Source of the DNA: Bacteroidia bacterium
GTDB taxonomy: Bacteria > Bacteroidota > Bacteroidia > M30B66
Assembly (NCBI GenBank): GCA_965279035.1
Contig: OZ257142.1
Span: 3,456,001 to 3,520,000, forward strand
Direction of reading: 5' to 3'
Length of the DNA stretch: 64,000 nucleotides
Positions 2,165 to 38,502 of the stretch are shown one piece after another. Position 1 is the stretch's first letter. Each line of letters begins with the position of its first letter. The position numbers and the translations under genes are program-made. The notes under the pieces were generated by a model. The model was not told the origin of the DNA. It saw only the letters and a list, made by a program, of their open reading frames with translations, and did not search any database.

Positions 2165-2305
2165 TTTTCACAAAAGTAATAAAATTTTCAATATACACGT
2201 GCAAATATATCCAAATGAATACGTGTCGTTTGTTGGTGATTTCCGCTAACCTTTAGACTTGCAGTCAAAGATTTTAGCTGATAAATTTACCATAAATAAA
2301 TGTAG

Positions 2306-2457
2306 TTAACCGAAAGCAGGGCGACCTATGCGCTAACAAGGATAATAGGCCTATGGAACGATATAGTGCCCTACTTTCTGGTTATTTAAGCCTCAGATAG
2401 ATATTCGGGATTCAGGCCCATTATAAAGGTTTTGAGGTACAAATAACCATTGGTTAA
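2306..2457 (+). ncRNA. Predicted IS110 bridge RNA (same offset in all 7 copies)
   Basis: Two stem-loops with internal loops: CGCTAAC (2331-2337) and GGAACG (2355-2360) match the target; ATAGATAT (2397-2404) and TAAAGG (2424-2429) match the IS circle junction. Confidence 0.8.
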
Positions 2458-2480
2458 TCCGTTTTGCTAATTATAAAATT

Positions 2481-3494
2481 ATGAATTCAAACCAGAACAA
2501 CCAAAAACATTTTGTAGGAACAGATGTTTCAAAAGAAACACTTGATGTAACGATCTTTTTCAACTCCTCAATGCATTTTCATCAGCAATTTTCAAATGAC
2601 AGCAAGGGCTTTAAGCAATTGCTGAAATGGCTAGAAACCTATCCTGAATTCAGTTTTGAAAATACTTTATTCTGCATGGAACATACAGGAATTTACACTC
2701 GTCAGTTTGTTGAATTCCTCCTTTCGAAAGAAGCAAAGGTATGGATGGAGTCGGCACTGCATTTAAAGCGTTCTATGGGCATGACAAGGGGCAAAAGTGA
2801 TAAGATCGATTCACTGCGAATTGCACGCTATGCAATGACTCATCAGGACCAAGCCAGGCTCGTAAATCTTTCCAATAAAACATTGTTGCTTATCAAAGAC
2901 CTTATGAGTGCAAGAGAGCGGAGTAAAAAGGCCTACCAGTCCATAAAAGTCTCCATTGATGAAATGCAAAGAGTCGATGCAGCAACAGCAAAAGAGCTCT
3001 TGAGGATTAATAAACCAGCCCTTTCTGGATTATTGAAAAGCAAGATGGCGTTGGAAAAACGGATGATGGAATTAATAGCGATGGATCCTGAACTGAACGA
3101 GCTATTTGAGCTGGTTACTTCTGTCAAAGGTGTGGGTAATGTATTGGCAACCGAACTGATTGTTTATACACATGCATTTAAAAGAATGGATGAAGCCAAA
3201 CAACTGGCCTGCTATTGCGGAGTCGCTCCTTTTTCTCATACTTCCGGCACGAGTGTGCATGGAAGAAATGGAACTTCAAACTTTGCTAACATGGGACTTA
3301 AATCAACTTTACACTTGGCTGCACTTTCTTCAATTCGTTACGTACCTGAGCTTAAAACATATTATCAGAGGAAAGTAGCTGAGGGAAAATCCAAAATGAG
3401 CGTAATTAATGCCGTGCGGAATAAACTGTTGCAACGTGTCTTAGCAGTGGTAAAAAGAGGAACGCCTTACCAAGAAAATTATCAAGTAAATTAA
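2481..3494 (+). CDS. IS110 recombinase/transposase
   Basis: DEDD RuvC-like motifs GTDVSK, MEHTG, KSDKID; C-terminal HTSGTS serine motif. Confidence 0.95.
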   Translation: MNSNQNNQKHFVGTDVSKETLDVTIFFNSSMHFHQQFSNDSKGFKQLLKWLETYPEFSFENTLFCMEHTGIYTRQFVEFLLSKEAKVWMESALHLKRSMGMTRGKSDKIDSLRIARYAMTHQDQARLVNLSNKTLLLIKDLMSARERSKKAYQSIKVSIDEMQRVDAATAKELLRINKPALSGLLKSKMALEKRMMELIAMDPELNELFELVTSVKGVGNVLATELIVYTHAFKRMDEAKQLACYCGVAPFSHTSGTSVHGRNGTSNFANMGLKSTLHLAALSSIRYVPELKTYYQRKVAEGKSKMSVINAVRNKLLQRVLAVVKRGTPYQENYQVN

Positions 3495-3515
3495 TTTGGA
3501 AAACTCATAGATATC

Positions 3516-3640
3516 GTTCCGCACACACCTGAAGAGCCAAATGAGATGAACGAAATGCTTTATATTAGACGAATATAACAAGAAAAACGAATGCCTCATA
3601 CTCCCGAAATGCTTGGCTTTGCTGGTGTGTGCTGTTAGCT
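3516..3640 (-). repeat. attC-like site A, disrupted by IS110
   Basis: GTTCCGCACACACC...GGTGTGTGCTGTTAGC; its TAAC end lies at 2247-2250. Confidence 0.9.
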
Positions 3641-3645
3641 GTAGT

Positions 3646-4287
3646 TTATTTATTACTCCAGAATTCTTCAGTTAAATAAAAAACAGTGTCAATAAAATAA
3701 AGGACATTATTTCTAGTCAACACATTTTCATCATGCAAATCTTCGAGTATAATTCCTAAATTTTGATTAAAGTAATCGTTGTTTCTAGTATTTTGAAATC
3801 CATTTGAAGTCAAAAACTCTTTTAATTGATTTAAATCTGTATTACTTGTTATTGTAACATATGATTGTTGAACAACAGCATAAAGAATTTCATTCTCCTT
3901 GGTAAATCCAAGCAATTCATATGCAGTATCTTCAAAAAAAAAATTATGAATCAACAAATTATAAAAGTAATCTCTCCAACTGCTATAATAAATTCCATCA
4001 TTTAACTTTAAAACATGATCAGAGTTTTTGAGATACACTCTTTGCTCTGCTCCTTCACTTACATACTGAGTAAAATCAATATCAGATATCCAAAGCTTAT
4101 TTTCTGAAACAAAGATTTCTAATCTCTTTGCTTCTTGTTCTTTGAATTGCTTTGAGTTTTCAATTTTTGAGCCTGGTTGCGAGCCTTTGCTAAGGTAACT
4201 GGCGACTGATTGGATAGTTGTTCCAAACCTAACTTGGCTCTTTCCTGAAATGACATCATAAAGTTCTTGTTTAAGTTGGTCTTGCAT
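3646..4287 (-). CDS. Kinase-fold protein, polyvalent-protein kinase (kinase-PolyVal-like)
   Basis: GAEQRVY, VLK, EDLHDENV, FID kinase-like motifs. Confidence 0.65.
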   Translation of the reverse strand: MQDQLKQELYDVISGKSQVRFGTTIQSVASYLSKGSQPGSKIENSKQFKEQEAKRLEIFVSENKLWISDIDFTQYVSEGAEQRVYLKNSDHVLKLNDGIYYSSWRDYFYNLLIHNFFFEDTAYELLGFTKENEILYAVVQQSYVTITSNTDLNQLKEFLTSNGFQNTRNNDYFNQNLGIILEDLHDENVLTRNNVLYFIDTVFYLTEEFWSNK

Positions 4288-4353
4288 TAAAGCAAAGATA
4301 AGAAATGATTTTATAAGTCGGAATGCTTGTTTATCAGCGATTTACTAAATTAC

Positions 4354-4485
4354 AGCTAACGTTTCGGGGGTTTGCGATGGCGGGGAGTTTTAGCACTAAA
4401 CTTCATTCGGAGAACTGAACTTCCACTAACCACAAATGTGTCTGCGAAGCACGGAACCCCCGCTATCGCAAACCCCATGTTAGCG
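4354..4485 (-). repeat. attC-like site, family D
   Basis: CTAAC-GTTTC-GGGGTTTGCGATGGCGGGG...CCCCGCTATCGCAAACCCC-AT-GTTAG. Confidence 0.9.
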
Positions 4486-4589
4486 GATGCCCTTCTTCCC
4501 ATTCCACGAAGGTATGCACTTTATTTTGTCGCACAATTGTCTGATTAAATTTTTTGTCGTCAAAAGTTGTCAGCAAGTAACCACACAAA

Positions 4590-4620
4590 AAATAAGCAGG
4601 GGTGGCGAAGCCACCCCTGC
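4590..4620 (-). terminator. Likely intrinsic terminator downstream of viperin
   Basis: GCAGGGGTGGC-GAA-GCCACCCCTGC hairpin followed by a T-rich tract on the minus strand. Confidence 0.55.
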
Positions 4621-4872
4621 CTTTACTACTTGTCTTTTCCCTTTGGCGGCACAGGAGGCTGCTGTTTAGGGTCAAGTTGTTTGCCTCTGTTACCTTGATT
4701 TTTGTCATAGGTTTCGTTTGTGCCAGAGGTCCCTTTGTTCGGATTTTTTATGTCCGCTTCGTGATTTTTTTCTTTCTCACTCATTGTTTTTGGATTTAAC
4801 TGTGATGCTTCAATTTCTGCGTTTCTGCTTCCGCCCCTTAGTTTTAGTTGGACTTCGGTTTAACCAATATTT

Positions 4873-5850: not shown

Positions 5851-5856
5851 AATAGG

Positions 5857-7380: not shown

Positions 7381-8645
7381 CTTTAGACTTGCAGTCAAAG
7401 ATTTTAGCTGATAAATTTACCATAAATAAATGTAGTTAACCGAAAGCAGGGCGACCTATGCGCTAACAAGGATAATAGGCCTATGGAACGATATAGTGCC
7501 CTACTTTCTGGTTATTTAAGCCTCAGATAGATATTCGGGATTCAGGCCCATTATAAAGGTTTTGAGGTACAAATAACCATTGGTTAATCCGTTTTGCTAA
7601 TTATAAAATTATGAATTCAAACCAGAACAACCAAAAACATTTTGTAGGAACAGATGTTTCAAAAGAAACACTTGATGTAACGATCTTTTTCAACTCCTCA
7701 ATGCATTTTCATCAGCAATTTTCAAATGACAGCAAGGGCTTTAAGCAATTGCTGAAATGGCTAGAAACCTATCCTGAATTCAGTTTTGAAAATACTTTAT
7801 TCTGCATGGAACATACAGGAATTTACACTCGTCAGTTTGTTGAATTCCTCCTTTCGAAAGAAGCAAAGGTATGGATGGAGTCGGCACTGCATTTAAAGCG
7901 TTCTATGGGCATGACAAGGGGCAAAAGTGATAAGATCGATTCACTGCGAATTGCACGCTATGCAATGACTCATCAGGACCAAGCCAGGCTCGTAAATCTT
8001 TCCAATAAAACATTGTTGCTTATCAAAGACCTTATGAGTGCAAGAGAGCGGAGTAAAAAGGCCTACCAGTCCATAAAAGTCTCCATTGATGAAATGCAAA
8101 GAGTCGATGCAGCAACAGCAAAAGAGCTCTTGAGGATTAATAAACCAGCCCTTTCTGGATTATTGAAAAGCAAGATGGCGTTGGAAAAACGGATGATGGA
8201 ATTAATAGCGATGGATCCTGAACTGAACGAGCTATTTGAGCTGGTTACTTCTGTCAAAGGTGTGGGTAATGTATTGGCAACCGAACTGATTGTTTATACA
8301 CATGCATTTAAAAGAATGGATGAAGCCAAACAACTGGCCTGCTATTGCGGAGTCGCTCCTTTTTCTCATACTTCCGGCACGAGTGTGCATGGAAGAAATG
8401 GAACTTCAAACTTTGCTAACATGGGACTTAAATCAACTTTACACTTGGCTGCACTTTCTTCAATTCGTTACGTACCTGAGCTTAAAACATATTATCAGAG
8501 GAAAGTAGCTGAGGGAAAATCCAAAATGAGCGTAATTAATGCCGTGCGGAATAAACTGTTGCAACGTGTCTTAGCAGTGGTAAAAAGAGGAACGCCTTAC
8601 CAAGAAAATTATCAAGTAAATTAATTTGGAAAACTCATAGATATC
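7381..8645 (+). mobile_element. IS110 copy 2
   Basis: Same ends and length as copy 1, same target position. Confidence 0.95.
7611..8624 (+). CDS. IS110 recombinase
   Basis: Protein identical to 2481..3494. Confidence 0.95.
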   Translation: MNSNQNNQKHFVGTDVSKETLDVTIFFNSSMHFHQQFSNDSKGFKQLLKWLETYPEFSFENTLFCMEHTGIYTRQFVEFLLSKEAKVWMESALHLKRSMGMTRGKSDKIDSLRIARYAMTHQDQARLVNLSNKTLLLIKDLMSARERSKKAYQSIKVSIDEMQRVDAATAKELLRINKPALSGLLKSKMALEKRMMELIAMDPELNELFELVTSVKGVGNVLATELIVYTHAFKRMDEAKQLACYCGVAPFSHTSGTSVHGRNGTSNFANMGLKSTLHLAALSSIRYVPELKTYYQRKVAEGKSKMSVINAVRNKLLQRVLAVVKRGTPYQENYQVN

Positions 8646-9304: not shown

Positions 9305-9451
9305 TTTTATTTGAATTAAATTTTTGTTGCTATTCCTCATGATGTTCGGAATACTCTCTGTTTTTTTGGTGGTTATATTGTATCAACTATTCAGTTGTTT
9401 GTCTCTTTTTATGGTCAATCTTTCTTGAACTGCGATGTCTTTTAAACTTGC

Positions 9452-9582
9452 CCATAACGGTCCGGCGATTTGCGAATGCGCGGAACAGTTTACCCAAATG
9501 TATCAAAACAAACGAAATGTTTCAATCAGAAAAATGACTTATAGAACGAAAATGCCCGCGTATCGCAGATTGCCTGTTATTT
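9452..9582 (-). repeat. attC-like site, family C
   Basis: TAAC-GGTCC-GGCGATTTGCGA...TCGCAGATTGCC-T-GTTA; near-identical to 47922. Confidence 0.9.
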
Positions 9583-9960
9583 GATGCGCGCCAAGTCCGA
9601 TTCAGTTCTAGCAAAGTTTCCAAGCAAAAAAAGCGACTTGAATACACATTCTGAAATAAGGCCAAAAACCATTCTGCAAATATTCTGTGTTTGTCGCCAT
9701 CAATTCTCTAGTTGATTTCATCAATCCATTAATTTGATTTTATCAGCAGTTCATTCCAGGCATATGGCGACAAACTTTTCAAAAACCTCTCAAATGGTTT
9801 TTGCCTATCCCTCAAATGCCGAGCTTTTTTTATCAAAAACGATTAGACATTCGTTTATTACTTTATTGTTTCCTGATAGCCGAAACTTCCTTTCGCCTTT
9901 AATGAATTATCTGACCACAATGCGAATGGCGAGTTTGGAAAATTTCGCGTTTCAAATAAC
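9576..9960. repeat. Non-coding cassette family X, copy 1
   Basis: 385 bp, four copies in window, ends GTTATTTGATGCGCG...CGCGTTTCAAATAAC. Confidence 0.9.
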
Positions 9961-10085
9961 GTTCCGCACACACCTGAAGAGCCAAACGACGTGAACGGAT
10001 AGCTTTAGATTAGACGAATATAACAAGAAAAACGAATGCCTCAAACTCCCGAAATGCTTGGCTTTGCTGGTGTGTGCTGTTAGCG
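9954..10085 (-). repeat. attC-like site A, intact
   Basis: Family A sequence. Confidence 0.9.
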
Positions 10086-10131
10086 GATCGCCCGGCACTC
10101 ACATTTTCGCAGTTGTGAAGTCGAACTGAAC

Positions 10132-10578
10132 TTATTTAACTTTTGATAAGCTTACAATCAAGGAATCTGGAATTTTCAAATCGTTAACCTTCCTAATGTA
10201 TCTCATACTGTCTTTAGTCGAAAAATACTCATCACCGGCGTCTCCTCCTTTTTTCATTAAGATCCATTCATGTCGCCTTCCTTTTTGGTGCTTAATAATA
10301 AAAAATTGTTTATTAAAAGAATATTCGAACGGATTGCTTGCGATTTTTATATAGTCAGTATCTGTTTTTAATTCATAGTTCTGAATAAAATCTTTTCTTA
10401 ACCAGATTCCGCAATCATTGTTATTGCAGCCTAAATAATATTCATTCCAAATTTGTTTCTGAACTCTAATGTTTATTGCACTCGTGCCGCATCCTGAAAG
10501 AAGGAACAATAGGCCAGTTCCAGTCAGACCTTTCTTAACAAATTTTAGATATTTATGAGAGATGTTTAGCTTCTTCAA
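10132..10578 (-). CDS. Hypothetical lipoprotein
   Basis: LLSGC lipobox; fills the cassette. Confidence 0.6.
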   Translation of the reverse strand: MKKLNISHKYLKFVKKGLTGTGLLFLLSGCGTSAINIRVQKQIWNEYYLGCNNNDCGIWLRKDFIQNYELKTDTDYIKIASNPFEYSFNKQFFIIKHQKGRRHEWILMKKGGDAGDEYFSTKDSMRYIRKVNDLKIPDSLIVSLSKVK

Positions 10579-10663
10579 AAGTATTTAATTACAGGTGACT
10601 TATTGATACTGATTTTCAAATGTTCAAAGTGACGTGATTGCTTTATGTAGGGTGTCCGCTAAC

Positions 10664-11928
10664 CTTTAGACTTGCAGTCAAAGATTTTAGCTGATAAATT
10701 TACCATAAATAAATGTAGTTAACCGAAAGCAGGGCGACCTATGCGCTAACAAGGATAATAGGCCTATGGAACGATATAGTGCCCTACTTTCTGGTTATTT
10801 AAGCCTCAGATAGATATTCGGGATTCAGGCCCATTATAAAGGTTTTGAGGTACAAATAACCATTGGTTAATCCGTTTTGCTAATTATAAAATTATGAATT
10901 CAAACCAGAACAACCAAAAACATTTTGTAGGAACAGATGTTTCAAAAGAAACACTTGATGTAACGATCTTTTTCAACTCCTCAATGCATTTTCATCAGCA
11001 ATTTTCAAATGACAGCAAGGGCTTTAAGCAATTGCTGAAATGGCTAGAAACCTATCCTGAATTCAGTTTTGAAAATACTTTATTCTGCATGGAACATACA
11101 GGAATTTACACTCGTCAGTTTGTTGAATTCCTCCTTTCGAAAGAAGCAAAGGTATGGATGGAGTCGGCACTGCATTTAAAGCGTTCTATGGGCATGACAA
11201 GGGGCAAAAGTGATAAGATCGATTCACTGCGAATTGCACGCTATGCAATGACTCATCAGGACCAAGCCAGGCTCGTAAATCTTTCCAATAAAACATTGTT
11301 GCTTATCAAAGACCTTATGAGTGCAAGAGAGCGGAGTAAAAAGGCCTACCAGTCCATAAAAGTCTCCATTGATGAAATGCAAAGAGTCGATGCAGCAACA
11401 GCAAAAGAGCTCTTGAGGATTAATAAACCAGCCCTTTCTGGATTATTGAAAAGCAAGATGGCGTTGGAAAAACGGATGATGGAATTAATAGCGATGGATC
11501 CTGAACTGAACGAGCTATTTGAGCTGGTTACTTCTGTCAAAGGTGTGGGTAATGTATTGGCAACCGAACTGATTGTTTATACACATGCATTTAAAAGAAT
11601 GGATGAAGCCAAACAACTGGCCTGCTATTGCGGAGTCGCTCCTTTTTCTCATACTTCCGGCACGAGTGTGCATGGAAGAAATGGAACTTCAAACTTTGCT
11701 AACATGGGACTTAAATCAACTTTACACTTGGCTGCACTTTCTTCAATTCGTTACGTACCTGAGCTTAAAACATATTATCAGAGGAAAGTAGCTGAGGGAA
11801 AATCCAAAATGAGCGTAATTAATGCCGTGCGGAATAAACTGTTGCAACGTGTCTTAGCAGTGGTAAAAAGAGGAACGCCTTACCAAGAAAATTATCAAGT
11901 AAATTAATTTGGAAAACTCATAGATATC
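10664..11928 (+). mobile_element. IS110 copy 3
   Basis: Same ends, length and target. Confidence 0.95.
10894..11907 (+). CDS. IS110 recombinase
   Basis: Identical protein. Confidence 0.95.
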   Translation: MNSNQNNQKHFVGTDVSKETLDVTIFFNSSMHFHQQFSNDSKGFKQLLKWLETYPEFSFENTLFCMEHTGIYTRQFVEFLLSKEAKVWMESALHLKRSMGMTRGKSDKIDSLRIARYAMTHQDQARLVNLSNKTLLLIKDLMSARERSKKAYQSIKVSIDEMQRVDAATAKELLRINKPALSGLLKSKMALEKRMMELIAMDPELNELFELVTSVKGVGNVLATELIVYTHAFKRMDEAKQLACYCGVAPFSHTSGTSVHGRNGTSNFANMGLKSTLHLAALSSIRYVPELKTYYQRKVAEGKSKMSVINAVRNKLLQRVLAVVKRGTPYQENYQVN

Positions 11929-13301: not shown

Positions 13302-13433
13302 CTATAACGTTTTCGGGCTTGGCGAAGGTGGCGATTTTCACCACAAATGTTAATGCGGAGAACCAAACTTTGATTAACCACAAATGTGTCTACGGTGCAC
13401 TGAACCGCCACTTTTGCCAAACCCGTGTTAGCG
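13302..13433 (-). repeat. attC-like site, family D
   Basis: CGGGCTTGGCGAAGGTGGCG...CGCCACTTTTGCCAAACCCG-T-GTTA. Confidence 0.9.
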
Positions 13434-14889: not shown

Positions 14890-15022
14890 CGCTAACGCTC
14901 CGCGTGCAACTCGAGGTTTGGGAATTGGTGAACTGAATGCTTTAGATTAGACGAATATAGCAAGAAAATTGAAATGTTTTAACCAAGCAAAATGCCCAAA
15001 TCTTGAGTGCACGCTGTTATTT
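14890..15022 (-). repeat. attC-like site, family B
   Basis: TAAC-GCTCC-GCGTGCAACTCGAGGTTTGGG...CCCAAATCTTGAGTGCACGC-T-GTTA. Confidence 0.9.
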
Positions 15023-15400
15023 GATGCGCGCCAAGTCCGATTCAGTTCCAGCAAACTTTCCAAGCAAAAAAAGCGACTTGAATACACATTCTGAAATAAG
15101 GCCAAAAACCATTCATCAAATTATCAATGTTTGTCGCCATCAATTCTCAAGTTGATTTCATCAATCCATTAACTTGATTTCATCTACAGTTCATTCCAGG
15201 CATATGGCGACAAACTTTTCAAAAACCTCTCAAATGGTTTTTGCCTTTCCCTCAAATGCCGAGCTTTTTTTATCAAAAACGATTAGACATTCGTTTATTA
15301 CTTTATTCTTTCCTGATAGCCGAAACTTCCTTTCGCCTTTAATGAATTATCTGACAATAATGCGAATGGCGTGTTTGGAAAATTTCGCGTTTCAAATAAC
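15016..15400. repeat. Non-coding cassette X, copy 2
   Basis: Highly similar to 9576-9960. Confidence 0.9.
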
Positions 15401-15525
15401 GTTCCGCACACACCTGAAGAGCCAAACGAGGTAAACGAAATGCTTTAGATTAGACGAATATAACAAGAAAAACGGATGCCTCAAACTCCCGAAATGCTTG
15501 GCTTTGCTGGTGTGTGCTGTTAGCC
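15394..15525 (-). repeat. attC-like site A, intact
   Basis: Family A sequence. Confidence 0.9.
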
Positions 15526-17170: not shown

Positions 17171-18435
17171 CTTTAGACTTGCAGTCAAAGATTTTAGCTG
17201 ATAAATTTACCATAAATAAATGTAGTTAACCGAAAGCAGGGCGACCTATGCGCTAACAAGGATAATAGGCCTATGGAACGATATAGTGCCCTACTTTCTG
17301 GTTATTTAAGCCTCAGATAGATATTCGGGATTCAGGCCCATTATAAAGGTTTTGAGGTACAAATAACCATTGGTTAATCCGTTTTGCTAATTATAAAATT
17401 ATGAATTCAAACCAGAACAACCAAAAACATTTTGTAGGAACAGATGTTTCAAAAGAAACACTTGATGTAACGATCTTTTTCAACTCCTCAATGCATTTTC
17501 ATCAGCAATTTTCAAATGACAGCAAGGGCTTTAAGCAATTGCTGAAATGGCTAGAAACCTATCCTGAATTCAGTTTTGAAAATACTTTATTCTGCATGGA
17601 ACATACAGGAATTTACACTCGTCAGTTTGTTGAATTCCTCCTTTCGAAAGAAGCAAAGGTATGGATGGAGTCGGCACTGCATTTAAAGCGTTCTATGGGC
17701 ATGACAAGGGGCAAAAGTGATAAGATCGATTCACTGCGAATTGCACGCTATGCAATGACTCATCAGGACCAAGCCAGGCTCGTAAATCTTTCCAATAAAA
17801 CATTGTTGCTTATCAAAGACCTTATGAGTGCAAGAGAGCGGAGTAAAAAGGCCTACCAGTCCATAAAAGTCTCCATTGATGAAATGCAAAGAGTCGATGC
17901 AGCAACAGCAAAAGAGCTCTTGAGGATTAATAAACCAGCCCTTTCTGGATTATTGAAAAGCAAGATGGCGTTGGAAAAACGGATGATGGAATTAATAGCG
18001 ATGGATCCTGAACTGAACGAGCTATTTGAGCTGGTTACTTCTGTCAAAGGTGTGGGTAATGTATTGGCAACCGAACTGATTGTTTATACACATGCATTTA
18101 AAAGAATGGATGAAGCCAAACAACTGGCCTGCTATTGCGGAGTCGCTCCTTTTTCTCATACTTCCGGCACGAGTGTGCATGGAAGAAATGGAACTTCAAA
18201 CTTTGCTAACATGGGACTTAAATCAACTTTACACTTGGCTGCACTTTCTTCAATTCGTTACGTACCTGAGCTTAAAACATATTATCAGAGGAAAGTAGCT
18301 GAGGGAAAATCCAAAATGAGCGTAATTAATGCCGTGCGGAATAAACTGTTGCAACGTGTCTTAGCAGTGGTAAAAAGAGGAACGCCTTACCAAGAAAATT
18401 ATCAAGTAAATTAATTTGGAAAACTCATAGATATC
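17171..18435 (+). mobile_element. IS110 copy 4
   Basis: Same ends, length and target. Confidence 0.95.
17401..18414 (+). CDS. IS110 recombinase
   Basis: Identical protein. Confidence 0.95.
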   Translation: MNSNQNNQKHFVGTDVSKETLDVTIFFNSSMHFHQQFSNDSKGFKQLLKWLETYPEFSFENTLFCMEHTGIYTRQFVEFLLSKEAKVWMESALHLKRSMGMTRGKSDKIDSLRIARYAMTHQDQARLVNLSNKTLLLIKDLMSARERSKKAYQSIKVSIDEMQRVDAATAKELLRINKPALSGLLKSKMALEKRMMELIAMDPELNELFELVTSVKGVGNVLATELIVYTHAFKRMDEAKQLACYCGVAPFSHTSGTSVHGRNGTSNFANMGLKSTLHLAALSSIRYVPELKTYYQRKVAEGKSKMSVINAVRNKLLQRVLAVVKRGTPYQENYQVN

Positions 18436-19289: not shown

Positions 19290-19420
19290 CTATAACGCTC
19301 CGCAGCTATCGGCTGAACCGGAGAACGGAACGTGATGCTTTAGATTATACGAATGTAATATAGAATTACCAATGTATCAACTTACCCAAATGCCGGTTTT
19401 GCCGATAGCTGCTGTTATAC
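19290..19420 (-). repeat. attC-like site, unique variant
   Basis: TAAC-GCTCC-GCAGCTATCGGC...GCCGATAGCTGC-T-GTTA. Confidence 0.9.
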
Positions 19421-22317: not shown

Positions 22318-23582
22318 CTTTAGACTTGCAGTCAAAGATTTTAGCTGATAAATTTACCATAAATAAATGTAGTTAACCGAAAGCAGGGCGACCTATGCGC
22401 TAACAAGGATAATAGGCCTATGGAACGATATAGTGCCCTACTTTCTGGTTATTTAAGCCTCAGATAGATATTCGGGATTCAGGCCCATTATAAAGGTTTT
22501 GAGGTACAAATAACCATTGGTTAATCCGTTTTGCTAATTATAAAATTATGAATTCAAACCAGAACAACCAAAAACATTTTGTAGGAACAGATGTTTCAAA
22601 AGAAACACTTGATGTAACGATCTTTTTCAACTCCTCAATGCATTTTCATCAGCAATTTTCAAATGACAGCAAGGGCTTTAAGCAATTGCTGAAATGGCTA
22701 GAAACCTATCCTGAATTCAGTTTTGAAAATACTTTATTCTGCATGGAACATACAGGAATTTACACTCGTCAGTTTGTTGAATTCCTCCTTTCGAAAGAAG
22801 CAAAGGTATGGATGGAGTCGGCACTGCATTTAAAGCGTTCTATGGGCATGACAAGGGGCAAAAGTGATAAGATCGATTCACTGCGAATTGCACGCTATGC
22901 AATGACTCATCAGGACCAAGCCAGGCTCGTAAATCTTTCCAATAAAACATTGTTGCTTATCAAAGACCTTATGAGTGCAAGAGAGCGGAGTAAAAAGGCC
23001 TACCAGTCCATAAAAGTCTCCATTGATGAAATGCAAAGAGTCGATGCAGCAACAGCAAAAGAGCTCTTGAGGATTAATAAACCAGCCCTTTCTGGATTAT
23101 TGAAAAGCAAGATGGCGTTGGAAAAACGGATGATGGAATTAATAGCGATGGATCCTGAACTGAACGAGCTATTTGAGCTGGTTACTTCTGTCAAAGGTGT
23201 GGGTAATGTATTGGCAACCGAACTGATTGTTTATACACATGCATTTAAAAGAATGGATGAAGCCAAACAACTGGCCTGCTATTGCGGAGTCGCTCCTTTT
23301 TCTCATACTTCCGGCACGAGTGTGCATGGAAGAAATGGAACTTCAAACTTTGCTAACATGGGACTTAAATCAACTTTACACTTGGCTGCACTTTCTTCAA
23401 TTCGTTACGTACCTGAGCTTAAAACATATTATCAGAGGAAAGTAGCTGAGGGAAAATCCAAAATGAGCGTAATTAATGCCGTGCGGAATAAACTGTTGCA
23501 ACGTGTCTTAGCAGTGGTAAAAAGAGGAACGCCTTACCAAGAAAATTATCAAGTAAATTAATTTGGAAAACTCATAGATATC
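22318..23582 (+). mobile_element. IS110 copy 5
   Basis: Same ends, length and target. Confidence 0.95.
22548..23561 (+). CDS. IS110 recombinase
   Basis: Identical protein. Confidence 0.95.
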   Translation: MNSNQNNQKHFVGTDVSKETLDVTIFFNSSMHFHQQFSNDSKGFKQLLKWLETYPEFSFENTLFCMEHTGIYTRQFVEFLLSKEAKVWMESALHLKRSMGMTRGKSDKIDSLRIARYAMTHQDQARLVNLSNKTLLLIKDLMSARERSKKAYQSIKVSIDEMQRVDAATAKELLRINKPALSGLLKSKMALEKRMMELIAMDPELNELFELVTSVKGVGNVLATELIVYTHAFKRMDEAKQLACYCGVAPFSHTSGTSVHGRNGTSNFANMGLKSTLHLAALSSIRYVPELKTYYQRKVAEGKSKMSVINAVRNKLLQRVLAVVKRGTPYQENYQVN

Positions 23583-24483: not shown

Positions 24484-24615
24484 GCATAACGTTTTGCAGC
24501 TACCCGAAGGGCGGGACTTTTACCACAAAACTTGATTTGAAAAGCTAAAGTTTGATTAACCACAAAACTGTCATTGGAACACGAAACCCCGCTTTTTGGG
24601 TAGGTGCTGTTAGGT
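24484..24615 (-). repeat. attC-like site, family D
   Basis: GCAGCTACCCGAAGGGCGGG...CCCGCTTTTTGGGTAGGTGC-T-GTTA. Confidence 0.9.
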
Positions 24616-27700: not shown

Positions 27701-28621
27701 AGATTGGTCGGGAATTCTATGTAAAACATCTTCTGTATTTAATGCTTCTATAGTTGCTTCAAAAAGTGAAGCTAGGTTCCGGTTTTCTTTTTTACGCCTA
27801 ATTATATTCCTACCACCTTCCTTAACTTCTTCAAGTCCGATTATGTGAAGTAGTTCTCTATAGAACTTTTCGTTAAGAGAGTTACTATCGTTTGGTGTTG
27901 CTACTTTTAATAAGTGTGTTGGTGAAAGAATTTTGAATAATGCAATTAATTCTTTGTCGTCCTCTTTATTGTTGTTTCTTAAAACCTTATCATATTCTCT
28001 GATGTCGAAGTAAACACAAGGTATTTCAACTTCAATTTTGGCAACTATTTTGGCTATTTCTTCATAAAAAAACGGGTTATCTTTTTTGTCGTTGAGTTTG
28101 GTTTCGTATAGTTTTTTTATTTGTGTATTTCGGTAAATATGTTTGTCGAAATAATTTGCGTCAATAATAAACCATTGGTTTACATTGGTCATTACCAACT
28201 GTTTTAGTTGGTTGTTTCCTGCTTGGTTTCTCTCGTCTAAGTAATAAAGTATAAGTTCGTGAAGTGCTTTTTTGTTAGGGTTGTCAGCCGTTACCATTTC
28301 ACCAATATTGGTAGGCCGTTTGGCTTCTATAATTACTCCAACCTCGCTGTCAGTTGTCTTGCCGAGATGAATTACAAGGTCTTTTTTGTCTTTGGTGTTG
28401 ATTGCGTTGGTGTCACGATAGTATGTGTCCCGCAGAAAGTCACGTAAGTCGTTTTTTAAATGTTCTTCACTTTCGTCTTTAGGTCGTTTTTCTATAACGC
28501 TGATTTTGTCGAGTAAAGCAATGAGGTTTGTTTTAAAAACGTCAATTTCGCTTCTCAAAGGTTTTTGCTTTAAGAAGGCTTTTAGTGCTTTTTTCGGTGT
28601 TTGCGTTATTAGTTTCATCAA
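24753..28621 (-). pseudogene. Type IIG restriction-modification enzyme (Eco57I/TaqI_C-like), with nonsense codon at 25304-25306 and frameshift near 24866
   Basis: IIEAK nuclease motif, DPAVGSGHF motif I, GNPPY motif IV; reading continues in frame after TAA; terminal IDQLVYKLYDITPEEQKIIEGQ lies in a shifted frame. Confidence 0.85.
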
Positions 28622-28869: not shown

Positions 28870-30134
28870 CTTTAGACTTGCAGTCAAAGATTTTAGCTGA
28901 TAAATTTACCATAAATAAATGTAGTTAACCGAAAGCAGGGCGACCTATGCGCTAACAAGGATAATAGGCCTATGGAACGATATAGTGCCCTACTTTCTGG
29001 TTATTTAAGCCTCAGATAGATATTCGGGATTCAGGCCCATTATAAAGGTTTTGAGGTACAAATAACCATTGGTTAATCCGTTTTGCTAATTATAAAATTA
29101 TGAATTCAAACCAGAACAACCAAAAACATTTTGTAGGAACAGATGTTTCAAAAGAAACACTTGATGTAACGATCTTTTTCAACTCCTCAATGCATTTTCA
29201 TCAGCAATTTTCAAATGACAGCAAGGGCTTTAAGCAATTGCTGAAATGGCTAGAAACCTATCCTGAATTCAGTTTTGAAAATACTTTATTCTGCATGGAA
29301 CATACAGGAATTTACACTCGTCAGTTTGTTGAATTCCTCCTTTCGAAAGAAGCAAAGGTATGGATGGAGTCGGCACTGCATTTAAAGCGTTCTATGGGCA
29401 TGACAAGGGGCAAAAGTGATAAGATCGATTCACTGCGAATTGCACGCTATGCAATGACTCATCAGGACCAAGCCAGGCTCGTAAATCTTTCCAATAAAAC
29501 ATTGTTGCTTATCAAAGACCTTATGAGTGCAAGAGAGCGGAGTAAAAAGGCCTACCAGTCCATAAAAGTCTCCATTGATGAAATGCAAAGAGTCGATGCA
29601 GCAACAGCAAAAGAGCTCTTGAGGATTAATAAACCAGCCCTTTCTGGATTATTGAAAAGCAAGATGGCGTTGGAAAAACGGATGATGGAATTAATAGCGA
29701 TGGATCCTGAACTGAACGAGCTATTTGAGCTGGTTACTTCTGTCAAAGGTGTGGGTAATGTATTGGCAACCGAACTGATTGTTTATACACATGCATTTAA
29801 AAGAATGGATGAAGCCAAACAACTGGCCTGCTATTGCGGAGTCGCTCCTTTTTCTCATACTTCCGGCACGAGTGTGCATGGAAGAAATGGAACTTCAAAC
29901 TTTGCTAACATGGGACTTAAATCAACTTTACACTTGGCTGCACTTTCTTCAATTCGTTACGTACCTGAGCTTAAAACATATTATCAGAGGAAAGTAGCTG
30001 AGGGAAAATCCAAAATGAGCGTAATTAATGCCGTGCGGAATAAACTGTTGCAACGTGTCTTAGCAGTGGTAAAAAGAGGAACGCCTTACCAAGAAAATTA
30101 TCAAGTAAATTAATTTGGAAAACTCATAGATATC
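28870..30134 (+). mobile_element. IS110 copy 6
   Basis: Same ends, length and target. Confidence 0.95.
29100..30113 (+). CDS. IS110 recombinase
   Basis: Identical protein. Confidence 0.95.
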   Translation: MNSNQNNQKHFVGTDVSKETLDVTIFFNSSMHFHQQFSNDSKGFKQLLKWLETYPEFSFENTLFCMEHTGIYTRQFVEFLLSKEAKVWMESALHLKRSMGMTRGKSDKIDSLRIARYAMTHQDQARLVNLSNKTLLLIKDLMSARERSKKAYQSIKVSIDEMQRVDAATAKELLRINKPALSGLLKSKMALEKRMMELIAMDPELNELFELVTSVKGVGNVLATELIVYTHAFKRMDEAKQLACYCGVAPFSHTSGTSVHGRNGTSNFANMGLKSTLHLAALSSIRYVPELKTYYQRKVAEGKSKMSVINAVRNKLLQRVLAVVKRGTPYQENYQVN

Positions 30135-31054: not shown

Positions 31055-31185
31055 TGCTAACGTTCCGTGGCTTTGCGATGTGCGGAATAGATTAACGTAA
31101 TGCCTCAGATTAGACGAATCTACCCAACAATACGGATGATTCAAAGTAGCTGAAATGCCCGCATATAGCAAAGCCACTGTTAGAG
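31055..31185 (-). repeat. attC-like site, unique variant, intact
   Basis: TAAC-GTTCC-GTGGCTTTGC...GCAAAGCCAC-T-GTTA. Confidence 0.9.
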
Positions 31186-33529: not shown

Positions 33530-33883
33530 ATGGAAACAAAGAAAAAACAAACGACCGAGAATTACATTAAAGAAATCCGCAGAAAGACAAGAAGAATTTT
33601 CAGTTCAGAACAGAAGATCCAGATAGTTATGGAGGCATTGCGTGCTGAATTGTCAGTAGCAGAATTGTGTAGGAAGTATTCTATACAGGAGAGTCAATTT
33701 TATAAATGGAATAAGGAGTTTTTGGAAGCAGGTAAGAAGCGTCTCTCCGGTGATGTAACCCGCGAAGCTACGAGTGATGAAGTGTCAGAGCTTCGCAAAG
33801 AAAATCAGCGCTTAAAGGAAATGGTCGCTGATTTGGTTTTGCGCTATGACATTGTAAAAAAAAGCTTGTCCATGCTGGATTAA
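33530..33883 (+). CDS. IS3 OrfA
   Basis: HTH, A7G slippery site near the 3' end. Confidence 0.9.
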   Translation: METKKKQTTENYIKEIRRKTRRIFSSEQKIQIVMEALRAELSVAELCRKYSIQESQFYKWNKEFLEAGKKRLSGDVTREATSDEVSELRKENQRLKEMVADLVLRYDIVKKSLSMLD

Positions 33884-33903
33884 CTGTAAAACTGAAAAAA
33901 TAT

Positions 33904-34920
33904 ATGCGTTTTACAGCATCCGAAAAGCAGGAACTCATCGATCTCGTTGTTCAATCTGAAATTGGTGTCAATCGCACCTTACGTGAAATAGGGCTTAATA
34001 AGAGCACATTTTACAAATGGTATAAATCATATGCTGACAACGGCGTTGATGGCTTAAATCCAAGCAAGCGGGTTTTAAAAAGGCAATGGAATAGTATTCC
34101 ACAACAGCAAAAGAATCTTGTAGTAGATCTTGCTTTGAATTATCCTGAATTATCATCTCGTGAACTTGCTTTTAAGCTAACTGATGAGCAACAGATTTTC
34201 ATTTCAGAATCGAGCGTTTATCGCATTTTGAAATCGAGAGGCTTAATCAATTCACCAGCCCATATTTTCATTTCAGCAGCCGATGAATTTTCTAAGAAAA
34301 CAGGATTTGTTCATCAAATGTGGCAAACAGACTTTACTTACTTTAAAATCATTGGTTGGGGCTGGTATTATTTAAGTACCATCTTAGATGATTACAGCCG
34401 ATATATTGTGCATTGGGAACTCTGTTCTGGGATGAAAGTTGAAGATGTAAAAAGAACCGTTGATAGAGCCATTAAAAAGGCCAAATTACTGTCAAAGCCT
34501 CGTCCCAAACTATTATCGGATAATGGTTCATGTTATATTGCTGCGGAACTCAGTGCTTACCTTAAGCAAAACCATGAGATAGATCAAATACACGGTAGGC
34601 CTTTTCATCCTCAAACACAAGGTAAAATAGAACGTTATCATCGTACAATGAAAAACGTGGTTAAGCTAAATCACTATTATTGTCCGGAAGAACTTGAAGA
34701 TGCCCTGGGAAAATTTGTTGATAATTACAATAACCAACGTTATCATGAATCATTGCAAAACCTAACTCCTGCTGATATATACTATGGAAGAGGTGATCAA
34801 ATCCTTAAAGAAAGAAAACGCTTAAAACACGAAGCATTAAACTCAAGAAGAATGGAATATGAGATGATAAAATCTAAACTCAAATCACAAAATCAAAATT
34901 TAAATCTAATTTTGATTTGA
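33904..34920 (+). CDS. IS3 OrfB DDE transposase
   Basis: WQTDFT, DDYSR, SDNG, PQTQGKIER. Confidence 0.92.
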   Translation: MRFTASEKQELIDLVVQSEIGVNRTLREIGLNKSTFYKWYKSYADNGVDGLNPSKRVLKRQWNSIPQQQKNLVVDLALNYPELSSRELAFKLTDEQQIFISESSVYRILKSRGLINSPAHIFISAADEFSKKTGFVHQMWQTDFTYFKIIGWGWYYLSTILDDYSRYIVHWELCSGMKVEDVKRTVDRAIKKAKLLSKPRPKLLSDNGSCYIAAELSAYLKQNHEIDQIHGRPFHPQTQGKIERYHRTMKNVVKLNHYYCPEELEDALGKFVDNYNNQRYHESLQNLTPADIYYGRGDQILKERKRLKHEALNSRRMEYEMIKSKLKSQNQNLNLILI

Positions 34921-34969
34921 TAATGAAATAATCTCTAAGTAAAAGTCCACTTTTGTTTGAAGACATACA

Positions 34970-35607
34970 CCCTCCAAAATGATATCAATACATTGGCTTC
35001 TAGTTTAACAAATATTCATAGCAATTATATTTCAATGAAGGCAGCTAGTAATGAAAGTGCTAAGCAAGTAAATATTGCCATTACTCCTGTTAACTTTATG
35101 GAATATTTAGAAAAGAAAATCAATGTATATAATCACTTATATAATAGAGTATCGTTTGTTGAATTTAATGAATCTGAAAAAAACATAATTGATTCTATTG
35201 CTTCAGTTTGCCCACTACTGGGCGGAAATGCTGTTTTCCTCGCTAGAAGTATTCAATTTTCATACAATGACAGTATTTTTTACGATGATTTGCTTTTGTG
35301 CAATCAACAAGGTGTTTACAATCGTATGTCAAATAAAGACAGCATTTATGAATTGAAAGAAGAGCATTTTGTAGTTTATCCAAATCCTACAAATGGTGAA
35401 TTGAATATATATTTAAGCTCAGGGGATAAATACTCAATACGAATCTTTAATTTATTAGGTCTATTAATAATAGAAGAATTTGATTTGAAATTAAAAGCAA
35501 CAATACATTTAGACAAAGAAAATATTGCAAATGGCTCTTACATTCTATTCCTTGAAAATAAATTAACGGGGAAAATAGAGCGTAAAAAAATCAATTTCAA
35601 TCATTGA
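34970..35607 (+). pseudogene. C-terminal remnant of a giant T9SS protein (paralogue of 44018-44655)
   Basis: Starts abruptly at the IS end; near-identical to the 44018 region. Confidence 0.85.
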
Positions 35608-35614
35608 ATTTAAA

Positions 35615-37159
35615 ATGAAAATCAAAATGTGTAGTACAAAAATTATTTTTTGTTTTTTTTCTGTCATATTATCATTGTCGCTCACAGCACAGCGTCAATC
35701 TGATGTTTTGGTAATGGGTAATTGTTTTTATAGTATACCATCTGAAGCTCCTGCTTCAAATTTTTTATTAGTATTTAATGAAGATAGTTTGGAATATATC
35801 GACAATAATACTCCAATAGTTCTATCTAATTTTTATAGTCGAGCATCCTATTCAGACAAACATGGAAATATAAAATTTGCCTCCAATGGTTGGCGATTGG
35901 TAAATAGTTATGGAGAAGTATTGTCCTATAAATTATGGAGTGATAGTATTGTATGGCCTGGAGGATCACCAGATACAACTCGAGTAGATTTATCTAAAGG
36001 ACCTTTGTTTCTTGAAGATCCATCTGATAGCAATCGAGTATATTTATTTTATGGACAATATTTAAGTGGTATCCCATCATCAATAGGGATGCTAAATCAA
36101 GATATATTATTTTCTTATGCAATTTTAGATGTATCGTCACAGAGTATGATAAGTAATAATCATATATTATTAAGTGATACAACATCCATTTCGGATGCTG
36201 TGGCTGTTCGCCATGGGAATGGTCGCGACTGGTGGATTATAAAGCCCGGAGTATTATCTAATGAATATTATATTGGATTATTGGATATCAATGGGGTAAC
36301 TCCTATGCAACATGTCTTTATTGAAGGATTAGAGCCGCACAATCAAACTTACACTAGTTCACATTTTAGTCAAGATGGTAATCACTTTATTCATTTTTCT
36401 GGTTTTGGCCCTAAATGGGTTCAGCGAATGGATTTTGATCGTTGCACTGGAATTTTTAGTAACCCTCAAGAGAAGGATATTAGTTCTCTATTTAGACCTG
36501 CCGACTTATCTAACTTTATTCCAAGCCCTGATCTTACAAAATTTTATGGTTATCGTTTAAATTACAATGATAGTAATTATATTACAGGAACTTACCAATA
36601 TGACTTTAATACTGATTCTTTAACTTTCATTTATCCAGATGCAGGTATTTCTTTAATATCGCCTAATTATAATAATTTATTTATTTTCGATGTTTTTGAT
36701 TATAATCAACCATATGAAAATATGTATTTCAGCACTATTAACCAACCAAATGAACCTGGTAATTCATGCGAAATCCAAACCTTTAGATACAATATTGAAA
36801 ATGCACCATTTATAGTTTCAGCTCCCAACATAGTTAATTATCGTCTTGGGCCATTCGTTGGCAGCGCTTGTGATCCTTTAGCTATAGAAGATAAGTTATT
36901 CAATAAAACAAAAAATATCCGTTTAGAACTATTTCCCAATCCAGCAAATAGTCAATTGCATTTACGCTTAAATGATCCCCAACATGATTATTCAATTCGA
37001 TTGTTTAATTCAATTGGTGAATTGGTGTATTCAACTCAATTAAGCAATGGTCTTTTGGATATTGATTTAACTAGTTTATCATTAGGTTCAGGTGTGTATG
37101 TTATTGAGTTATCAAATTCAATTATCATAAAGCGGGAGAAAATATTGATTGCTAATTGA
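35615..37159 (+). CDS. T9SS type-A CTD protein, beta-propeller-like
   Basis: RHGNGRDWW, FDRCTG, LFPNPA CTD. Confidence 0.88.
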   Translation: MKIKMCSTKIIFCFFSVILSLSLTAQRQSDVLVMGNCFYSIPSEAPASNFLLVFNEDSLEYIDNNTPIVLSNFYSRASYSDKHGNIKFASNGWRLVNSYGEVLSYKLWSDSIVWPGGSPDTTRVDLSKGPLFLEDPSDSNRVYLFYGQYLSGIPSSIGMLNQDILFSYAILDVSSQSMISNNHILLSDTTSISDAVAVRHGNGRDWWIIKPGVLSNEYYIGLLDINGVTPMQHVFIEGLEPHNQTYTSSHFSQDGNHFIHFSGFGPKWVQRMDFDRCTGIFSNPQEKDISSLFRPADLSNFIPSPDLTKFYGYRLNYNDSNYITGTYQYDFNTDSLTFIYPDAGISLISPNYNNLFIFDVFDYNQPYENMYFSTINQPNEPGNSCEIQTFRYNIENAPFIVSAPNIVNYRLGPFVGSACDPLAIEDKLFNKTKNIRLELFPNPANSQLHLRLNDPQHDYSIRLFNSIGELVYSTQLSNGLLDIDLTSLSLGSGVYVIELSNSIIIKREKILIAN

Positions 37160-37237
37160 ATTTATACATAACCCAATAATTGAATGATCATAGTGCTTAT
37201 TGTATTGCAGTATGCTGATTACAAAGTGTTGCATAAC

Positions 37238-38502
37238 CTTTAGACTTGCAGTCAAAGATTTTAGCTGATAAATTTACCATAAATAAATGTAGTTAACCGA
37301 AAGCAGGGCGACCTATGCGCTAACAAGGATAATAGGCCTATGGAACGATATAGTGCCCTACTTTCTGGTTATTTAAGCCTCAGATAGATATTCGGGATTC
37401 AGGCCCATTATAAAGGTTTTGAGGTACAAATAACCATTGGTTAATCCGTTTTGCTAATTATAAAATTATGAATTCAAACCAGAACAACCAAAAACATTTT
37501 GTAGGAACAGATGTTTCAAAAGAAACACTTGATGTAACGATCTTTTTCAACTCCTCAATGCATTTTCATCAGCAATTTTCAAATGACAGCAAGGGCTTTA
37601 AGCAATTGCTGAAATGGCTAGAAACCTATCCTGAATTCAGTTTTGAAAATACTTTATTCTGCATGGAACATACAGGAATTTACACTCGTCAGTTTGTTGA
37701 ATTCCTCCTTTCGAAAGAAGCAAAGGTATGGATGGAGTCGGCACTGCATTTAAAGCGTTCTATGGGCATGACAAGGGGCAAAAGTGATAAGATCGATTCA
37801 CTGCGAATTGCACGCTATGCAATGACTCATCAGGACCAAGCCAGGCTCGTAAATCTTTCCAATAAAACATTGTTGCTTATCAAAGACCTTATGAGTGCAA
37901 GAGAGCGGAGTAAAAAGGCCTACCAGTCCATAAAAGTCTCCATTGATGAAATGCAAAGAGTCGATGCAGCAACAGCAAAAGAGCTCTTGAGGATTAATAA
38001 ACCAGCCCTTTCTGGATTATTGAAAAGCAAGATGGCGTTGGAAAAACGGATGATGGAATTAATAGCGATGGATCCTGAACTGAACGAGCTATTTGAGCTG
38101 GTTACTTCTGTCAAAGGTGTGGGTAATGTATTGGCAACCGAACTGATTGTTTATACACATGCATTTAAAAGAATGGATGAAGCCAAACAACTGGCCTGCT
38201 ATTGCGGAGTCGCTCCTTTTTCTCATACTTCCGGCACGAGTGTGCATGGAAGAAATGGAACTTCAAACTTTGCTAACATGGGACTTAAATCAACTTTACA
38301 CTTGGCTGCACTTTCTTCAATTCGTTACGTACCTGAGCTTAAAACATATTATCAGAGGAAAGTAGCTGAGGGAAAATCCAAAATGAGCGTAATTAATGCC
38401 GTGCGGAATAAACTGTTGCAACGTGTCTTAGCAGTGGTAAAAAGAGGAACGCCTTACCAAGAAAATTATCAAGTAAATTAATTTGGAAAACTCATAGATA
38501 TC
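37238..38502 (+). mobile_element. IS110 copy 7
   Basis: Same ends, length and target. Confidence 0.95.
37468..38481 (+). CDS. IS110 recombinase
   Basis: Identical protein. Confidence 0.95.
   Translation: MNSNQNNQKHFVGTDVSKETLDVTIFFNSSMHFHQQFSNDSKGFKQLLKWLETYPEFSFENTLFCMEHTGIYTRQFVEFLLSKEAKVWMESALHLKRSMGMTRGKSDKIDSLRIARYAMTHQDQARLVNLSNKTLLLIKDLMSARERSKKAYQSIKVSIDEMQRVDAATAKELLRINKPALSGLLKSKMALEKRMMELIAMDPELNELFELVTSVKGVGNVLATELIVYTHAFKRMDEAKQLACYCGVAPFSHTSGTSVHGRNGTSNFANMGLKSTLHLAALSSIRYVPELKTYYQRKVAEGKSKMSVINAVRNKLLQRVLAVVKRGTPYQENYQVN

Follow-up and report, generated by a model that had tools for sequence, protein, structure and literature searches.

Seven identical copies of an IS110-group element with a predicted bridge RNA at the cassette joints of a Bacteroidota array

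The window analysed here is a stretch of 64,000 nt from a freshwater Bacteroidota chromosome (Bacteroidia bacterium, GenBank assembly GCA_965279035.1, contig OZ257142.1, positions 3,456,001 to 3,520,000 of the forward strand). It carries an array of cassettes separated by att-like hairpin sites, and seven of these sites are split by an insertion sequence (IS) of the IS110 family. A repeat search of the window recovered seven elements that are 100% identical and 1265 nt long each, at copy-to-copy spacings of 5130, 3283, 6507, 5147, 6552 and 8368 nt. Base-by-base extension gave a common block of exactly 1272 nt (starts 2247, 7377, 10660, 17167, 22314, 28866 and 37234), leftward of which no sequence is common to all seven copies. 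Compared with the empty sites (…TAAC/GTTCC…, the slash marking the joint), the block resolves into TAAC, the 1265-nt element and GTT. One C is assignable to either end of the element, and copy 1 was taken as 2251–3515. All seven copies share the + orientation and the insertion point, and there is no target-site duplication, occupied and empty sites differing only by the one ambiguous C. The right flank reads GTTCCGCACAC in six copies and GTTTCGCACAC in the copy at 17171, while the 22-mer found 3′ of each copy occurs 12 times on the + strand, seven times adjoining a copy and five times directly after TAACGTTC. A first-pass annotation of this DNA had reported seven identical 1265-bp copies, with their coordinates, single orientation and split sequence, all of which proved exact by repeat search and extension. 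The copies, their main parts and the remainders of the split sites (family A, described below) are the following.

2251..3515, + strand: IS110-family element copy 1, 1265 nt, delimited by repeat and empty-site comparison
7381..8645, + strand: copy 2, identical
10664..11928, + strand: copy 3, identical
17171..18435, + strand: copy 4, identical; right flank GTTTCG, with T for C at +4 (a G:T wobble with the guide described below)
22318..23582, + strand: copy 5, identical
28870..30134, + strand: copy 6, identical; its host is a diverged family-A site
37238..38502, + strand: copy 7, identical
3516..3637, + strand: rest of the occupied family-A site of copy 1, its TAAC lying at 2247–2250
Starts 8646, 11929, 18436, 23583, 30135 and 38503, + strand: corresponding site remainders of copies 2–7
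2481..3494, + strand: transposase/recombinase open reading frame (ORF) of copy 1, 337 aa, with a DEDD RuvC-like domain and a Tnp domain with an SG motif
Starts 7611, 10894, 17401, 22548, 29100 and 37468, + strand: the same ORF in the other copies
2306..2438, + strand: predicted bridge RNA core of copy 1 (covariance model), a target-binding module followed by a donor-binding module
7436–7568, 10719–10851, 17226–17358, 22373–22505, 28925–29057 and 37293–37425, + strand: RNA core in the other copies

The protein scores 68.5 bits with Pfam PF01548 and 70.5 bits with PF02371, both above the cut-off, and 157 bits with NCBIfam NF033542, "IS110 family RNA-guided transposase" (cut-off 140). Its residues 7–332 align to the IS621 transposase (PDB 8wt6, E 2.7e-26) with the SG motif in register, and D15, E67, D107, D110 and S255-G256 are invariant among 25 homologues. 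The ORF is preceded by 230 nt and followed by 21 nt of non-coding sequence. No terminal or sub-terminal inverted repeat joins the ends of the element, none of the 14 listed inverted pairs linking its first and last 50 nt. The profile matches, the full-length IS621 alignment and the layout of the ends thus bear out the earlier description of an IS110-type recombinase with a non-coding region upstream and without sub-terminal inverted repeats. Judged from its sequence, the element belongs to the IS110 group in the definition of Siddiquee et al. 2024 and not to the IS1111 group.

The sites of the array share one frame: TAAC, G(T/C)T and two bases, a stem of 19–20 nt, about 72 nt, the return arm, one or two bases, and GTTA. 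Between 1359 and 60974 we found 23 sites in this frame, all in the + orientation, 12 of them of family A (hairpin sites of about 125 bp) and 11 of other families. Seven of the 12 family-A sites are occupied, versus none of the 11 others. The chance that seven random insertions among 23 sites would all fall in the 12 of family A is 792/245157 = 0.003. The earlier site counts hold for family A (seven of 12 occupied) and for the lack of occupied sites elsewhere; of the 13 other sites then claimed, 11 were found in the same frame. The empty sites are listed below.

1359..1484, + strand: empty family-A site
9957..10082, + strand: empty family-A site
15397..15522, + strand: empty family-A site
48427..48552, + strand: empty family-A site
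58095..58220, + strand: empty family-A site
31058..31182, + strand: empty site of another family, reading GCTAAC/GTTCCG, a predicted but unused target
4357..4482, + strand: empty non-A site, GTTTCG…
13305..13430, + strand: empty non-A site, GTTTTC…
14893..15019, + strand: empty family-C site, GCTCCG…
46276–46402, 47359–47485, 59777–59903 and 60345–60471, + strand: further empty family-C sites
19293..19417, + strand: empty non-A site, GCTCCGCAGC…
24487..24612, + strand: empty non-A site, GTTTTGCAGC…
60849..60974, + strand: empty non-A site, GTTTTGCGGG…, the final site before the right end of the window

An attC-type frame, that is, an imperfect hairpin bounded by …TAAC and GTTA…, fits all 23 sites, with the boundaries mapped by duplicated cassettes. 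The stems contain mismatches and, by eye, no obvious bulged (extrahelical) bases. By their central 70 nt the sites fall into two super-families, one comprising families A and C together with 19293 and 31058, the other 4357, 13305, 24487 and 60849. The sites are asymmetric in having a 5-nt versus a 1-nt spacer beside TAAC/GTTA. Since the ORFs between sites are mostly on the minus strand, each ending just short of the GTTA/TAAC arm of a site, we take the minus strand as the cassette strand, on which each site reads …TAAC-stem…stem-GGAAC-GTTA…. The family-A site 15397 and site 60849, which belongs to another family, have the same cassette of about 500 bp on their left, with identity stopping inside TAACGTT, and the family-C sites 59777 and 46276 are identical over the 127 nt from TAAC to GTTA and unrelated on either side. 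The occurrence of the same ~500-bp module beside two site families is evidence for past cassette shuffling. Because these duplicated cassettes put the boundary inside TAACGTT, the element lies exactly at the module joint. The earlier proposal of an insertion at, or one base from, the crossover agrees with this, the element starting after TAA or after TAAC, at the module boundary. The ~500-bp module, or its last 350–400 nt, is present four times (~9450–9956, 14893–15396, ~47920–48426 and 60345–60848) and holds an 86-aa ORF with a TTG start on the + strand.

In comparison with relatives of the element, the non-coding region upstream of the ORF has the properties of a structured RNA. The set of relatives comprises 79 loci in public genomes with 41–73% protein identity, and their titled records are nearly all Bacteroidota, with one metagenome-assembled genome (MAG) labelled otherwise. 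The region upstream of the ORF folds somewhat better than shuffles (z = -2.4). A covariance model, R1, was built from the non-coding regions of the eight closest relatives, its structure being hand-written from fold and alignment. It predicts two modules, each with an outer stem, an internal loop and an inner hairpin. R1 matches over its full length (positions 1–133) before the ORF in all seven window copies, and 77 further matches in the 79 loci bring the total to 84. Among 66 distinct rows, pairing cells amount to 92.0% versus 63.7% in shuffles, compensatory changes are seen at 25 of 25 pairs, and none of 500 shuffles reaches any of five measures. When the partner columns are slid by 1–3, pairing is only 32–51%. 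RNAalifold applied to a plain MAFFT alignment returned only 11 pairs, eight of them compensatory. The RNA role proposed earlier for this region is thus backed by a two-loop RNA with covariation support. The two internal loops carry four putative guides, with the following positions in copy 1.

2330..2337, + strand: left target guide GCGCTAAC, identical to the top strand left of the joint, so pairing with the bottom strand
2355..2360, + strand: right target guide GGAACG, complementary to top-strand C+GTTCC
2397..2405, + strand: left donor guide ATAGATATT, identical to the right end of the element (…ATAGATAT-C); its last U would wobble with G
2424..2429, + strand: right donor guide TAAAGG, complementary to C+CTTTA at the left end

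The left target guide GCGCTAAC is complementary to GTTAGCGC, the consensus core at the start of cassettes. At the window sites it always matches TAAC and up to 7 nt in all. Counted by eye over the 12 family-A sites, the match averages 5.7 nt at occupied and 4.4 nt at empty sites, which is only a trend. On the right side, family A and site 31058 read GTTCC (one family-A site reads GTTTC, a G:T wobble), and the rest read GTTTC, GTTTT or GCTCC followed by other stems. The preference for family A is explained by the right guide, which reads four variable bases that differ in the other families. The apparent family-A specificity is really specificity for 5–6 nt beside the joint and not for the hairpin. 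The unoccupied sequence TAACGTTCC occurs six times in the 64 kb, each time within an att site, and is absent from the other strand; seven of the 13 predicted targets are occupied. The left donor guide ATAGATAT(T) matches the right end (RE) of the window element, …ATAGATATC, and tracks RE in relatives, being ATAGATTT where RE is …ATAGATTTC and ATAGAAAT where RE is …ATAGAAATC. A "handshake" pairing of the ATAT after the right target guide with the right end was considered and rejected, as it fails beyond one base in clades with non-palindromic ends.

Covariation between guides and flanks in relatives agrees with the earlier suggestion that the element is RNA-guided, and the strands with which the guides match target and donor are those known from IS621. 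Within the clade there is no variation in the left guide, in TAAC or in the G after it; the variation lies in the 4–5 bases before the CG of the right guide. Over 45 insertions, an average of 3.42 of the five right-guide bases that precede the invariant CG agree with the right flank. These rows include a chance match (L043, 10815) and two loci with disrupted-looking right ends (L001 and L053), which lower the score. For the 38 unique pairs, the matches sum to 128, whereas shuffles have a mean of 1.61 per pair and a maximum of 87, and none of 20000 reaches 128. With one row for each of the 20 distinct guides, 74 of 100 positions match versus a shuffle mean of 33.5 (again 0/20000). The outermost position of the right guide is mismatched in most cases and probably not read, leaving about four variable bases that are. 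Two additional "left-end" (LE) matches, in L008 (12260) and in L043 at the position just mentioned, were rejected as chance matches of a 9-mer.

In distant relatives (41–48% identity), the left guides differ and equal their own left flanks over 7–14 nt, with exact 9-nt matches in, for example, L058, L059, L060, L064, L071 and L078, and the right guides complement their own right flanks. L058, from a record titled Candidatus Nomurabacteria MAG, is the sole locus with a non-Bacteroidota title; its own left guide matches its flank, and it may represent a binning error or a transfer. L088 is a metagenome contig with an element at 615–1879 whose protein is 98% identical to that of the window copies. 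Its guide is GAAACG versus GGAACG, its site reads C/GTTTT, and the element precedes a shorter, different hairpin starting GTTTTG. On its sequence, L088 is a natural single-base retargeting. A copy with 98% identity in a lake-water metagenome contig of X5 is inserted at TAAC/GTTCCGC and followed by a different hairpin. X5 is one of four Logan contig sets derived from reads (X1, X3, X5 and X6), of which X1 and X3 represent the organism of the window. Together, guide-flank covariation, L088 and X5 argue that the RNA, not the hairpin, chooses the site.

Taken as a whole, these data make it very probable that each copy is an autonomous IS of the IS110 group, in which a DEDD/serine recombinase is directed to cassette joints by a bridge RNA encoded at the left end. 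In the proposed mechanism, the 5′ strand of the target loop would present GCGCTAAC, and GGAACG on the 3′ strand would pair with top-strand C-GTTCC, the first bases of the family-A hairpin site. The donor loop would pair with the excised circle, ATAGATAT(U) with its right end and TAAAGG with its left. Strands would be exchanged around a single shared C:G pair, corresponding to the cassette-strand G of GTT, where one cassette ends and the next begins. The element would thereby come to lie between cassettes in one orientation, antisense to the cargo, leaving ORFs intact and parting the GTTA arm of the site from the rest of the hairpin. Expression of the RNA, formation of a circle with a promoter at its junction, the precise points of cleavage and an effect on cassette recombination are inferred. 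One RNA run, X24, contains a small share of the sequence words. Joining of RE and LE would create TTTG-N20-TAGACTTG in seven of 12 elements examined (the window copy, L003, L004, L005, L007, L008 and L052; the other five lack the motif), which is close to the Bacteroidota -33/-7 promoter consensus. After insertion, the 3′ arm of the hairpin consists of GATATCT instead of GTTA…, and GTTA is left 1.27 kb away. This change from GTTRRRY to GATATCT on the cassette (minus) strand had been noted earlier and can be read directly from the sequence. The same holds for the integrity of the cargo, no ORF of which is interrupted by the element. It is a reasonable expectation that a recombinase needing both hairpin arms should fail at an occupied site; the earlier annotation had suggested that neighbouring cassettes may in this way be locked together. 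With seven such insertions in 60 kb, cassette dynamics may be constrained or redirected to a measurable degree.

Several points weigh against this interpretation. The guide-flank match is imperfect: of the 45 rows, six match at 5/5 positions, 17 at 4/5, 15 at 3/5, four at 2/5 and three at 1/5. Target and donor share only one nucleotide at the joint, C, the preceding base being A in the target and T in the donor and the next G and C, respectively. Five family-A sites and site 31058 match fully, yet are empty, so that a match is necessary and not predictive of occupancy. The putative G/TT crossover at these sites is an analogy taken over from canonical IntI. The alignment used for fold covariation was fitted to R1, which favours the structure, and no Rfam family matches at the gathering threshold. 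Finally, contigs of X1, X3, X5 and X6 contain neither a joint skipping 2251–3515 (the empty allele) nor a right-end-to-left-end joint (the circle); as such contigs drop rare variants, this has no bearing on excision or circle formation.

Direct recognition of the folded hairpin or of TAACGTT by the recombinase protein or a host factor, with the RNA complementarity being incidental, is the best-surviving alternative, and we judge it quite improbable. The targets are indeed hairpin sites, and TAAC/G is invariant in the clade and hence gives no covariation signal. An anchored hairpin ending in GTT is found in 19 of 45 right flanks of relatives versus 263 of 3000 random positions. By contrast, 26 of the 45 flanks fail this simple hairpin test, the clade with GGGCG-type guides mostly failing it, and a count of 19 in 45 does not permit the claim that attC-like hairpins are the target throughout the TAAC-guide clade. 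Moreover, direct recognition would leave unexplained why variable flank bases track guide bases, why in near-identical elements a one-base guide change is accompanied by sites changed to match, and why the same guide is used with different hairpins (in X5 and, by sequence match only, at site 31058).

Passive multiplication of a module composed of the IS and a family-A site, by cassette recombination, homologous recombination or segmental duplication within the array, has a very small chance of being correct. It would account for the association of all copies with one site family and one orientation, and duplicated cassettes do exist in the array. However, no two of the seven copies have the same left flank or the same cargo on either side, the element is missing from five family-A sites, and the same guide-flank rule holds for relatives at unrelated sites in other genomes. 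All 1265 nt are the same in every element, but the adjoining family-A sites vary at several positions and one of them is strongly diverged. Seven identical copies in host sites of differing sequence suggest a recent burst and not passive duplication. An assembly artefact, in which the assembler copied one repeat into several places, has practically negligible probability: identical repeats are a classic source of misassembly, but each copy has unique flanks on a 4.2-Mb contig, and the IS contig has ~9–13 times the depth of its unique neighbours in X1 and X3, depth not being copy number.

The depth of the IS contig is 1117 in X1, with 100–127 for neighbouring unique contigs, and 2246 in X3, with 170–240 for the neighbours; depth is not a copy number, and these values hint at roughly ten genomic copies. 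In both sets the IS contig is 1282 nt long and spans 2247 to 3528, as expected if the abundant copies share a left-hand TAAC and 13 nt of family-A sequence after the right end, which is weak evidence. A count of 28 genomic copies was rejected, the 28 being distinct sequences of at least 90% identity from many sources. Two complete genomes of relatives contain five and three element copies. Contigs of X1 and X3 also contain four joints in which 1429–1490 (the right end of a family-A site) is connected almost directly to 2242–2247 (TAAC and the left end of the element). This suggests further copies elsewhere, with another att site as the left neighbour and little or no cargo between.

The recombinase operating the array was sought in the window and in relatives. 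None of the 30 scanned window ORFs is a tyrosine recombinase, and in a profile search none of five relatives' genomes reaches the cut-off of the integron-integrase model TIGR02249. The best genes of these five genomes align only with positions 2–178 and 240–314 of TIGR02249, skipping the IntI-specific insert. These genes score highest with NF040815 (XerA/integron integrase), at 205–227 bits versus a cut-off of 220, and, among structures, with those of archaeal XerA. Three XerA-like genes lie within ~1–8 kb of element-bearing arrays, in L015, L033 and L025. In L015, the recombinase gene is located at the upstream end of the array and has the same direction as the cassettes.

L082, 1210–2187, - strand: XerA-like tyrosine recombinase beside an array
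L080, 1222–2700, - strand: XerA-like tyrosine recombinase beside an array
L083, 1135–2304, + strand: XerA-like tyrosine recombinase beside an array
L015, 8095–9072: recombinase context
L033, ~9677–11170: recombinase context

As a lead, the arrays used by this IS lineage may be integron-like without being canonical integrons. A more far-reaching proposal is that a Bacteroidota-wide lineage of bridge-RNA IS110 elements has co-evolved with a non-canonical cassette system (XerA-like recombinase, no IntI domain, unbulged hairpins) and, with a fixed left guide and a diversified right guide, serves as a second, RNA-guided shuffling engine; we regard this as rather unlikely. The left guide would then be hard-wired to the universal cassette-start core, and only the right guide would diversify, following the site families. 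Recombination of the right junction of one copy with the left junction of the next would free blocks of cassettes as circles with a restored site; alternatively, such blocks would be moved as composite units.

The cargo of the array includes toxin-antitoxin, methyltransferase and restriction-modification genes, a radical-SAM protein, a polyvalent-protein kinase and unknown genes. Several cargo proteins have a type-IX secretion tail, a mark of Bacteroidota. A PIN and DUF6364 pair is carried as a cassette at 1482–2164, and a fused MmeI/Eco57I-like restriction-modification enzyme of 1105 aa (DUF7149, DUF7814) at 25304–28621 on the minus strand. A "cassette" of 9.7 kb, 48553–58094, lies between two family-A sites and encodes proteins of 2626 and 497 aa, both with a type-IX secretion C-terminal tail; this cargo is unusually large for an att-bounded module. 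Between 31182 and 46276, the only att site is that occupied by copy 7. Other mobile elements are also present: an IS3-type pair (HTH and rve ORFs) occurs twice in inverted orientation, at 33530–34920 (+) and 41782–43172 (-), flanking an IS4-type DDE transposase at 39030–40196 (-), and an rve fragment is found at the left edge of the window (467–1090, +).

Sedentary chromosomal integrons, such as the Vibrio VCR arrays, are long one-way arrays of highly similar sites. The array described here resembles them in being one-way, with at least 23 sites of highly similar ~125-bp families over 60 kb, in its types of cargo, and in the exchange of modules at the TAA/C boundary. It differs in the lack of an integrase among the scanned window ORFs, in the XerA-like nature of the adjacent recombinase of relatives, which is without the IntI-specific domain and in L015 has the direction of the cassettes, and in stems that by eye have mismatches and no obvious bulged bases. 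In large Bacteroidota arrays of the kind in which standard finders based on integrases would probably see no integrase, the precise module boundary is flagged by the element, and element-bearing arrays point to the recombinase that may run them. Group IIC-attC introns (PMC3001079) are likewise a separate mobile lineage specialised on attC that leaves the cargo intact. They rely on a ribozyme and a reverse transcriptase and have no recombinase, so that the mechanism is unrelated.

The closest mechanistic parallel is IS621. According to Durrant et al. 2024 (PMC11208160), its bridge RNA pairs with the bottom strand through the left target and left donor guides and with the top strand through the right ones, each guide including the core, and described bridge systems have a shared dinucleotide core, CT in IS621. 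The element shares with IS621 the protein family, an alignment at the level of the fold, a guide RNA at the left end upstream of the ORF, two internal loops with the same four-guide strand pattern and a core base in each guide, and the lack of inverted repeats and target duplication. The protein identity is low (96 bits with phmmer). The target of IS621 is a REP-like sequence and its donor and target share the CT dinucleotide, whereas the target here is a recombination site of a cassette array and a single donor/target base is common. Unlike in IS621, the left guide is fixed clade-wide and only 4–5 right-guide bases vary. The branch used for bridge-RNA genome engineering has here independently specialised on cassette junctions in another phylum, and at least 20 natural right-guide variants with genomic targets, including the one-base pair with 98% identity, constitute a ready specificity data set.

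RNA-guided targeting of attC was previously known only for the IS1111 branch in Proteobacteria. No IS110-group element with an upstream RNA that targets attC, nor one in Bacteroidota, was found among the titles and abstracts listed by literature searches, although the supplementary tables of Durrant et al. 2024 may list such elements. The IS1111-attC group (ISKpn4, ISPst6 and ISPa25) is guided to attC by a seekRNA, as reported by Siddiquee et al. 2024 (PMC11187229). Several features are common to both: a transposase of the DEDD superfamily, insertion in one orientation at one end of attC, and a short RNA from a non-coding region. As described there, IS1111-attC elements differ from the present one in possessing sub-terminal inverted repeats and in having the non-coding region and seekRNA downstream of tnp; in their RNA, the top-strand match is 5′ of the bottom-strand match, whereas the element here has the IS110 order; and their hosts are Proteobacteria, not Bacteroidota. 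Because the defining inverted repeats and downstream RNA are absent, the element is not a member of the IS1111-attC group. It is an IS110-group counterpart of these elements, in another phylum.

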